A DNA stretch of 64,000 bases from a virus (IMGVR_UViG_3300023119_000004), one strand, 5' to 3'. Positions 4,511 to 9,772 are shown, counted from the stretch's first letter. Notes: generated from the sequence alone by a model not told the origin. Numbers and translations: made by a program.

Positions 4511-4596
4511 GCCCCTGTGGTGGAATTGGTAGACACAAGGGACTTAAAATCCCTCGCTGATATGGCGTGCCGGTTCGAGTCCGGCTGGGGGCACCA
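4511..4596 (+). tRNA. tRNA-Leu (UAA)
   Basis: Acceptor GCCCCTG/TGGGGGC, anticodon arm AGGGA-CTTAAAA-TCCCT, long variable arm, GGTTCGAGTCC T-arm, encoded CCA. Confidence 0.95.
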
Positions 4597-4608
4597 ATTC
4601 ATACATAT

Positions 4609-4686
4609 CTGCCCGTAGTTCAGTTGGATTAGAACAACGGTCTTCTAAACCGTAGGTCGCAGGTTCGAGTCCTGCCGGGCAGGCCA
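4609..4686 (+). tRNA. tRNA-Arg (UCU)
   Basis: Acceptor CTGCCCG/CGGGCAG, anticodon arm ACGGT-CTTCTAA-ACCGT, GGTTCGAGTCC T-arm, encoded CCA. Confidence 0.95.
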
Positions 4687-9161: not shown

Positions 9162-9198
9162 TATACCCAAAACACATACCTGCTATGCTAAATACTAA

Positions 9199-9250
9199 TA
9201 CGTTCGAGCAACACGCTTGGAAGTAGACACTATGTCGAAGGAACGCACCT
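9199..9250 (+). ncRNA. Glutamine riboswitch (glnA-motif class)
   Basis: P1 CGTTC/GAACG, P2 GAGC/GCTT, junction GGAAGTA, P3 GAC/GTC, then GAAG. This is the layout and conserved residues of the glnA/Downstream-peptide RNAs. It sits between a late promoter motif (9188) and AGGAGG-ATG 9272. Confidence 0.85.
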
Positions 9251-9271
9251 AACTTTAACAAGGAGGGTGAC

Positions 9272-9466
9272 ATGGATAGACACTCATTTATGCTCAAGCA
9301 ATACAGTGAGCAACAACTACGTAAAAAGAAAGAAATGGAATTATGGAAGGCTCGTCATGAGGTGGAAATAAATGGTCATGGTACTTCTGGTTATGTAGTA
9401 AAGCATGGTCCTAACAAAGATAAAATCTTAGGACATCAGTCTACTAAATCTACCAACAACTGGTAG
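9272..9466 (+). CDS. 64-aa basic protein under riboswitch control
   Basis: Strong RBS AGGAGG; directly downstream of the riboswitch. Confidence 0.8.
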   Translation: MDRHSFMLKQYSEQQLRKKKEMELWKARHEVEINGHGTSGYVVKHGPNKDKILGHQSTKSTNNW

Positions 9467-9470
9467 TCAA

Positions 9471-9526
9471 AAAAAAGAGCAATCCGGGTGTACACATAAT
9501 AATACGTATACCCGTTGCTCTTATAA
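9471..9526. terminator. Long hairpin, probably a bidirectional terminator
   Basis: AAGAGCAA/TTGCTCTT plus CGGGTGTAC/GTATACCCG stems between convergent genes. Confidence 0.6.
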
Positions 9527-9547: not shown

Positions 9548-9772
9548 TTATTGATTAGCCTTAACTACAGGCCATAGTTCTTTTACTAGTTTGTCTTTGG
9601 TTTGTCTACGATCAAGTTCTATACCGTGAACACGACCCAAGTCTTCTAGTTGTGTTTTGGTCATTTTAGCAAGTTCAGCACGTTTAAGTTTACGCGGTGT
9701 CTCTACAGGTTTATCCAATACTAGAGGCTCCTGTACAGTACTGCCAAATAACGATTTTAACCATTTTAACAT
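9548..9772 (-). CDS. Small protein with Rho-N/HeH-like helical motif
   Basis: LAKMTKTQLEDLGRVHGIELDRRQTKDKLV; TATAAATA upstream at 9789-9796. Confidence 0.7.
   Translation of the reverse strand: MLKWLKSLFGSTVQEPLVLDKPVETPRKLKRAELAKMTKTQLEDLGRVHGIELDRRQTKDKLVKELWPVVKANQ

Follow-up and report, generated by a model that had tools for sequence, protein, structure and literature searches.

To our knowledge, reports of riboswitches on viral genomes are limited to a few classes, one of which is the glutamine class. A short leader in the uncultured virus IMGVR_UViG_3300023119_000004 raises the question of whether a phage reads host glutamine through such an RNA, in which direction the switch would act and what its product would do. 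The leader lies directly upstream of a 64-codon ORF in the stretch of DNA that was analyzed (64,000 nucleotides; hereafter, the window). An original prediction for this locus described a glnA-class glutamine aptamer with a three-way junction and implied that its occurrence in a phage was new. The implied novelty was overstated; phage glutamine riboswitches have already been published (PMC9004378, PMC9602691, PMC9964418), and both the switch class and its presence in phages are known. The additions made here are modest and consist of covariation support for a linchpin-anchored helix that masks the Shine-Dalgarno (SD) sequence, a set of micro-protein cargoes, a lead to speD and a clade-specific G.U variant of the aptamer.

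The sequence elements that the original prediction had listed are all present at their positions (Table 1). The aptamer matches the glnA RNA motif of Rfam over the full model (positions 1–53), with 38.1 bits against a gathering score of 35 and an E-value of 1.1e-4 (cmscan, Rfam 15). This element is the sole riboswitch match in the 64-kb window, even at E ≤ 1. The second Rfam model named in the prediction, Glutamine-II (Downstream-peptide motif, RF01704), gives no match in the window at the same permissive threshold.

Table 1. Coordinates of the leader, ORF and terminator features in the window.
Feature	Position	Strand	Basis or remark
Late-promoter-like CTAAATA (variant of T4-type TATAAATA)	9188–9194	+	Ends 6 nt before P1
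Type-1 glutamine riboswitch aptamer (glnA RNA motif, RF01739)	9199–9249	+	cmscan, stem covariation, relatives' scores
P1, CGTTC with GAACG	9201–9205 with 9241–9245	+	Sequence
P2 closing wobble, G.U in place of the family's usual A and C	9206 with 9218	+	112-aptamer comparison
P2, AGC with GCT	9207–9209 with 9215–9217	+	Sequence
Conserved junction, GGAAGUA and GAAG	9219–9225 and 9237–9240	+	Sequence
P3, GAC with GTC	9226–9228 with 9234–9236	+	Sequence
SD-masking hairpin, CACCU/GGGUG plus CUU/AAG	9246–9269 (9246–9250/9265–9269 and 9253–9255/9260–9262)	+	MFE, covariation
Shine-Dalgarno AAGGAGG	9260–9266	+	5 nt before ATG 9272; kept in relatives
64-codon ORF	9272–9466	+	ATG 9272, stop 9464–9466; phrog_32989; dN/dS
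17-bp hairpin, bidirectional terminator	9475–9522	both	A8 before, T-rich run after

Because a margin of 3 bits is thin on its own, relatives were gathered by scanning IMG/VR with the back-translated 64-aa protein, which returned 60 loci. The aptamer precedes an ORF for the same protein in 47 of the 60 loci, at a constant spacing and with protein identities of 56–100%; in two of the 47 (L028 and L054), the P3 loop holds a large insert. It is absent from nine loci with 44–64% identity over partial matches and from three cultured or fosmid pelagiphage-type homologues. The Rfam gathering score is passed by 19 of the 20 related leaders tested, at 39.6–65.5 bits. When 23 distinct leader variants were aligned (A1), standard pairs occupied 98.9% of the pair cells, and seven pairs changed on both sides, namely every pair of P2 and P3 (six in total) and one of P1. 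None of 500 shuffles matches this combination of pairing and covariation, and no slid register comes near it. CGUUC, GGAAGUA, GAAGGAACG, the J2/3 GG and the linchpin C are present in the window and invariant in the 23 variants; the roles of the J2/3 GG and the linchpin C in the glutamine aptamer are described in PMC11477058. Moreover, the nucleotide 3' of P1 is C in 110 of the 112 distinct phage aptamers among the matches listed. Chance is excluded as the origin of the match because the relatives keep the aptamer and its stems covary. The covariance model and the stem covariation confirm that the window element belongs to the type-1 glutamine riboswitch aptamers, as had been predicted, and it would be expected to bind glutamine.

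The window's clade departs from the rest of the family at the pair that closes P2. The equivalents of positions 9206 and 9218 are A/C in 101, G/U in 11 and mixed in none of the 112 distinct phage aptamers among the matches listed, and the G/U form is restricted, among these matches, to the window's clade. In addition, P2 is short in this clade, and the Rfam scores of its members (38–42 bits) are the lowest. The low score of the window element results from the short P2 together with the G.U pair, the latter being a partial explanation. G.U and A.C wobble pairs are isosteric. The perfect coupling of the A/C and G/U states therefore indicates a preserved geometry, as an isosteric wobble would give. 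The same features, a junction pair that differs from that of the 101 other phage aptamers among the matches listed, a short P2 and the lowest scores, could be taken to mean that the fold is kept without glutamine sensing, either as a constitutive structured leader that stabilizes the mRNA or tunes translation or as a variant for another ligand. Such a loss of glutamine sensing is very improbable, however, given the coupled exchange and the intact state of the strongly conserved Rfam positions (CGUUC, GGAAGUA, GAAGGAACG and the linchpin C).

Directly behind P1, the leader folds into the hairpin that masks the SD sequence. The isolated hairpin has a predicted energy of −8.7 kcal/mol and is the MFE and centroid fold in the window and in two relatives (L046 and L029). 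Its first base, C9246, corresponds to the linchpin C of the aptamer. Within the clade, this region hardly varies. The 10-nt segment CACCTAACTT is invariant in 23 of 23 variants, at a synonymous divergence of dS >1 between the same loci, and the leader is near-invariant among relatives from GAAGGAACG to GGGTG. L029 lacks GGAGG and contains AGGUG instead, which retains perfect pairing with CACCU.

Because the anti-SD helix is near-invariant within the clade, the covariation evidence for it comes from other lineages. IMG/VR was scanned with a pattern for the aptamer core, which gave at least 120 loci; together with the earlier loci, these provide at least about 105 distinct instances of a phage aptamer with its tail, which fall into 23 tail classes. 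For most tail classes among the matches listed, the tail pairs with the 3' portion of the SD region in a helix that is anchored at the nucleotide directly behind P1. Both sides of this helix change between the tail classes among the matches listed, as in CACCU/GGGUG, CACUU/GAGUG, CACUUU/GAAGUG, CAUCUUU/GGAGAUG, CAAUCUUU/GGAGAUUG and CGCCU/AGGUG. When tails were swapped between classes, with one representative per class among the matches listed, own tails gave more stable duplexes than swapped tails (−5.8 versus −3.8 kcal/mol; Mann-Whitney p ~1e-6) and longer anchored helices (4.6 versus 3.1 bp). Folding and tail/SD covariation across phage lineages thus agree with the CACCT/GGGTG pairing that had been put forward as a possible expression platform, and they support a coupling of the aptamer to the ribosome-binding site (RBS) in the manner of a 5' leader with an expression platform. 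The covariation set also provides sequence-level support for a class mechanism that has so far only been postulated.

That mechanism was proposed for the gifB (IF17) leader of Synechocystis sp. PCC 6803, in which the linchpin C and the nucleotides that follow it would pair with the RBS until glutamine melts the helix (Klahn et al. 2018, PMC6212724); Huang et al. argue along similar lines for type 2 (PMC6698751). In the solved glutamine-bound aptamer, the linchpin is the G23–C60 pair, which joins the C to the second G of the GGAAGUA junction (PMC11477058). The gifB type-1 switch and a type-2 switch increase expression with glutamine in vivo (PMC6212724). The gifB leader and the window share the aptamer class, a small-protein cargo, translational control and the same proposed platform. 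They differ in the promoter, which is of the phage late type in the window and an NtcA-repressed host promoter in gifB, in the cargo, which is unrelated to DUF4278 in the window, and in the junction pair (G.U versus A.C). Furthermore, the host of the window's phage is probably non-cyanobacterial.

An ON switch is the preferred reading because the phage leader has the architecture proposed for gifB in its most compact form. Transcription from a T4-type late promoter would start almost exactly at the aptamer, and C9246 would serve twice, as the linchpin C of the aptamer and as the opening base of the hairpin that buries the SD sequence. When glutamine is scarce, the hairpin would form and the 64-codon ORF would be translated poorly. 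When glutamine is abundant, the ligand-bound aptamer would take C9246, the hairpin would weaken and ribosomes would load. The net effect would be a translational ON switch whose product, a small basic protein with a helix and a sheet, would be made late in infection, in amounts proportional to the nitrogen status of the host. By analogy with gifB and with the linchpin of the crystal structure, ON is the most likely direction, and we consider it probable that the late-gene cassette as a whole (9188–9522) is a glutamine ON switch that gates a late 64-aa protein.

The opposite sign would follow if glutamine stabilized P1 and the SD hairpin stacked coaxially on it, such that high glutamine repressed translation. 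P1 ends at G9245 and the hairpin starts at the contiguous C9246, so that the two can coexist in the predicted secondary structure, where they overlap at one nucleotide only; in addition, Klahn et al. call the sign unknown for metagenomic glnA-gene leaders (PMC6212724). An OFF switch is nevertheless unlikely. Both glutamine riboswitch types tested in vivo act as ON switches (PMC6212724, PMC6698751), and the masking helix opens with the linchpin C, a base that the bound aptamer requires as well, which puts the two states in competition. This linchpin anchoring is conserved in most tail classes among the matches listed.

Upstream of the aptamer, the original prediction had noted a late-type promoter motif. 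T4-type late promoters are recognized by a gp55-type sigma factor and have a −10 element resembling TATAAATA, placed a few nucleotides upstream of the transcript start. With 15 occurrences in the window, where 17.9 would be expected, CTAAATA is not enriched, and the promoter reading therefore rests on conserved position rather than on frequency. Of 135 distinct phage aptamers among the matches listed, 81 have a TAAATA that ends 5–10 nt upstream of P1, most often 6 nt. Close relatives have (G)CTAAATA, and more distant ones have the canonical TATAAATA at the same distance to P1. No gp55-type late sigma factor was found among 31 ORFs scanned of the 64-kb window. The conserved placement before P1 favors the promoter reading, to which the frequency of the motif in the window adds nothing, and a late transcript that starts almost at the aptamer is likely from the motif's position.

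Downstream of the ORF, the terminator hairpin has a predicted energy of −23.0 kcal/mol on the plus strand (z −6.4) and −22.3 kcal/mol on the minus strand (z −5.2). A simple terminator scan missed it because its loop is 12 nt long. The hairpin lies between the ORF and a convergent minus-strand gene (9548–9772) and separates the two, and the cassette is therefore monocistronic. Positions 9188–9522 form a self-contained cassette in which a promoter-like motif, the aptamer, the SD-masking hairpin, the ORF and the terminator follow one another. Contigs from four salt-marsh metatranscriptome libraries cover the cassette, in weak support of the reading above; carried-over DNA may contribute to them, and transcript starts are not visible in contigs. 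The summed depth at 9176–9427 is higher than that of the flanks in four of four metatranscriptome runs, a depth that mixes related phages and, together with the blindness of contigs to starts, is therefore not evidence of expression level or of a transcription start site.

The 64-codon ORF is a real gene by its pattern of substitution. The median dN/dS is 0.16 over 63 pairs, indicating purifying selection, 60 of 133 variable sites fall at third codon positions, and length and stop are conserved. The product is basic, as predicted, with a pI of 9.75 and a net charge of about +5. A profile match to the phage-only family phrog_32989 covers residues 7–52 of 64 (E 2e-10). The family comprises 33 clusters at 90% identity, and a profile search of 1.84 billion representatives expands it to 177 clusters at 50% identity, mostly of 50–80 aa. 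AlphaFold2 (24 sequences) predicts a helix at residues 2–30 followed by a three-stranded sheet (mean pLDDT 71), and the invariant residues of the C-terminal part read EV-N-GT-GY-K-G-L-H-K. Structure-based searches gave no named relative: Foldseek against PDB, BFVD and AFDB clusters matched only the family itself or generic long helices, VIA-align over 48,161 chains found no known fold and only generic long-helix matches (Z ≤3.4), and an ESM Atlas feature search returned unnamed viral clusters only.

Megablast and blastn of the cassette region against isolated phages gave no match, and tblastn found four distant homologues of the 64-aa protein. Homologues without the riboswitch include HTVC106P gp38 (Pelagibacter phage), BAQ94294 (uncultured phage MedDCM-OCT-S46-C10) and an unannotated frame in HTVC008M. 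They share the core EV-IN-G-GT-GY-IK-G-NKGKIL with the window protein and are similar in size. Unlike the window gene, they are not preceded by an aptamer and are translationally coupled or embedded in operons. The podovirus homologue lies between a holin-like gene and a coiled-coil gene, and that of HTVC008M follows the gp2 end-protector gene. At the latter locus (L002:2451–2623; KC465899), the homologue overlaps the gp2 DNA end-protector gene in TAATG and is followed by the baseplate tail-tube initiator gene; its frame is broken in the A-rich CAGAAAAAACAAG, by a sequencing error or a real frameshift.

For the role of the protein, the original prediction had offered a modulator of glutamine synthetase (GS) or PII, or a regulator of lysis timing; neither suggestion gained a footing in the searches for a Pfam family, a YRG/DUF4278 motif or a known fold. 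A GS or PII modulator that mimics cyanobacterial IF7/IF17 would suit a small basic protein under the riboswitch class that controls IF17, and other phage glutamine cassettes among the matches listed bear YRG-repeat (DUF4278-like) ORFs. However, the 64-aa protein matches no Pfam family at E ≤0.01, its family alignment contains no YRG/DUF4278 motif, and in clustering, the family separates from the YRG ORFs that follow other phage aptamers. Lacking the YRG repeat and unrelated to IF7/IF17, the protein leaves the GS-modulator idea unsupported. Its riboswitch-less homologues are located in structural or lysis-side modules of SAR11 phages, and relatives of the phage infect proteobacteria, which control GS by adenylylation (PMC6212724). 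A GS or PII modulator is therefore highly doubtful.

A second possibility, still tentative and improbable, is that the protein works with S-adenosylmethionine (AdoMet) decarboxylase or in polyamine metabolism, a pathway that is costly in nitrogen and required by phages for DNA packaging. Four representative clusters (P0038, P0062, P0054 and P0166) are in-frame fusions of AdoMet_dc (PF02675) to the family, and the P0038 fusion is present on nine contigs. speD lies 0.3–0.7 kb downstream in two close relatives (L020 and L021), and an aptamer with a small ORF is found directly downstream of speD on the same strand in 13 further loci. Nevertheless, speD is within reach in only 3 of about 80 fetched loci that carry the 64-aa family, the 64-kb window contains no speD, and the adjacency may merely reflect a common hypervariable island in related cyanophages. 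A complex prediction for the L021 AdoMet decarboxylase and its neighboring 64-aa protein scored 0.00, with a partner pLDDT <50, and speaks neither for nor against an interaction. Extended to the cassettes in general, the long-shot proposal is that the 64-aa protein, and perhaps other cassette micro-proteins, would be glutamine-gated effectors of the nitrogen and polyamine economy, for example as partners or regulators of AdoMet decarboxylase. If so, riboswitch plus micro-protein cassettes would be an unrecognized modular class of phage auxiliary regulators that has spread among cyanophages, SAR11/OM43 phages and large PA5oct-like phages.

The speD–aptamer neighborhood, seen in 13 of 180 fetched loci (including L075, L082, L099, L101, L107, L126, L134 and L171) with four small-ORF families, may represent a functional link or a shared insertion hotspot. 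In L021 (3233–3797) and L020 (380–529), the cassette is followed by a conserved, very basic 49-aa ORF. In L021, a gene for an IscU/NifU-like Fe-S scaffold lies between this ORF and the convergent speD. The window has different genes at the position of the 49-aa ORF.

The phage that carries the window cassette is, by its core genes, a PA5oct/Atu_ph07-like large uncultured myovirus without recognizable cyanophage marks. Its terminase (53% identity), DnaB-type helicase (52–53%) and tail sheath (43–45%) are closest to those of Pseudomonas phage PA5oct, Agrobacterium phage Atu_ph07 and their kin. The cyanobacterial framing of the original prediction does not fit these core genes, which are nearest to those of PA5oct/Atu_ph07-type phages of proteobacteria, and the host is probably not a cyanobacterium. 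The glutamine riboswitch is thus found here in a phage lineage far from the cyanophages. Upstream of the cassette lies a gene whose product resembles virion proteins of cyanophages. DNA of the phage recurs in many salt-marsh metagenomes and metatranscriptome libraries.

In the window's clade, the cassette is located 1.3–2.5 kb from a convergent helicase gene among variable small genes. More distant copies occupy other contexts, often adjoining tRNA or tmRNA genes. Because the contexts differ between copies, the cassette behaves like a mobile accessory cassette. PHROG assigns the flanking genes in the more distant loci L046 and L024 to families of unknown function only. In the window, two tRNA genes (4511–4593 and 4609–4683, plus strand; 54.7 and 69.8 bits) are situated 4.5 kb before the cassette, and tRNA genes flank the cassette in L024, L043, L045, L046, L053 and L054. 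In L032, whose 64-aa protein is 77% identical to that of the window, a gene for a permuted alpha-type tmRNA (990–1384; 107.8 bits) precedes the riboswitch cassette by 1.5 kb.

Among known phage elements, the closest comparison is with the glutamine riboswitches that Buchholz et al. (2022, PMC9004378) reported from Melnitz, a phage of OM43, from Mosig, a phage of SAR11, and from related viral contigs. The Melnitz and Mosig elements are phage-encoded RF01739 aptamers like that of the window (52.8 and 50 bits, respectively), and each has an SD-complementary tail and a small ORF directly behind it; the Mosig aptamer follows CATAAATA. Their cargo families differ from that of the window, being a 32-aa W-C type in Melnitz and a 51-aa DPR-Q type (Mosig_00116) in Mosig, and both phages belong to the Kyanoviridae, unlike the PA5oct/Atu_ph07-like phage of the window. 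The Melnitz element has been interpreted as controlling a tmRNA (PMC9004378). In the Melnitz record (MZ577097, L185:885–1055), the aptamer follows the tmRNA on its 3' side. Directly behind the aptamer come the complementary tail CACU/AGUG, an SD sequence and an unannotated ORF of 32 codons that belongs to the W-C family. A minus-strand CDS annotated at the same place (locus 979–1080) is probably spurious.

Glutamine riboswitches have also been mentioned in T4-like cyanophages (PMC9602691, PMC9964418). These are phage-borne and belong to the same Rfam family as that of the window. Many cyanophage switches among the matches listed precede YRG-repeat (IF17-like) ORFs, whereas that of the window does not, and cyanophage cassettes among these matches often combine an NtcA-box-like promoter with a DUF4278-type cargo, neither of which is present in the window cassette. 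Six YRG-repeat cassettes (L101, L107, L126, L070, L094 and L141) lack the upstream TAAATA late motif; in its place they have an NtcA-box-like palindrome, GTA-N8-TAC, with a −10 element of the TATATT type behind it. This arrangement suggests a host-style nitrogen control of transcription stacked on the riboswitch.

The ORFs behind genuine aptamers among the matches listed are all small, mostly 26–65 aa. Peptides of 28–47 aa, most with a conserved W-C motif, account for 30 of the 112 ORFs among the matches listed, and the 64-aa family is second commonest (19 of 112 among the same matches). The other cargo families among the matches listed are of 32 aa, about 50 aa, 49 aa and the YRG-repeat (IF17-like) type, and the families are unrelated to one another. 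A common origin of the 64-aa protein and the 28–35-aa W-C micro-peptides was considered from their common MDR(F/H)(T/S) start and was rejected at an hhalign probability of 0.4%. One leader (CACCTAACTTT...GGAGGGTG) is found before different ORF families, and switch and cargo therefore recombine. Phage glutamine switches thus control a few conserved, mostly unannotated micro-proteins rather than tmRNA or known nitrogen genes, and the functions of these micro-proteins, if found, would reveal what a phage decides from host nitrogen status late in infection.

Individual loci also vary the aptamer itself. L054 (2825–2978; 39.6 bits) contains a late promoter, an aptamer and an ORF of the 64-aa family as in the window, but its P3 (AACAATG/CATTGTT) holds an insert of about 100 nt. 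The insert reads as a hydrophobic ORF of 33 codons that starts at an ATG within the 5' strand of P3; translation of this inner ORF would unfold the aptamer. In L028 (2868–2975), a perfect hairpin of about 20 bp, closed by a 32-nt loop, lengthens P3; among the 20 leaders tested, only this one falls below the Rfam gathering score. Tandem aptamers spaced about 55–60 nt apart precede a single small ORF in eight loci (L078, L084, L105, L136, L152, L153, L168 and L179), where the cargo belongs to a 49-aa MTKYQ family or a 33–35-aa MTLW family.
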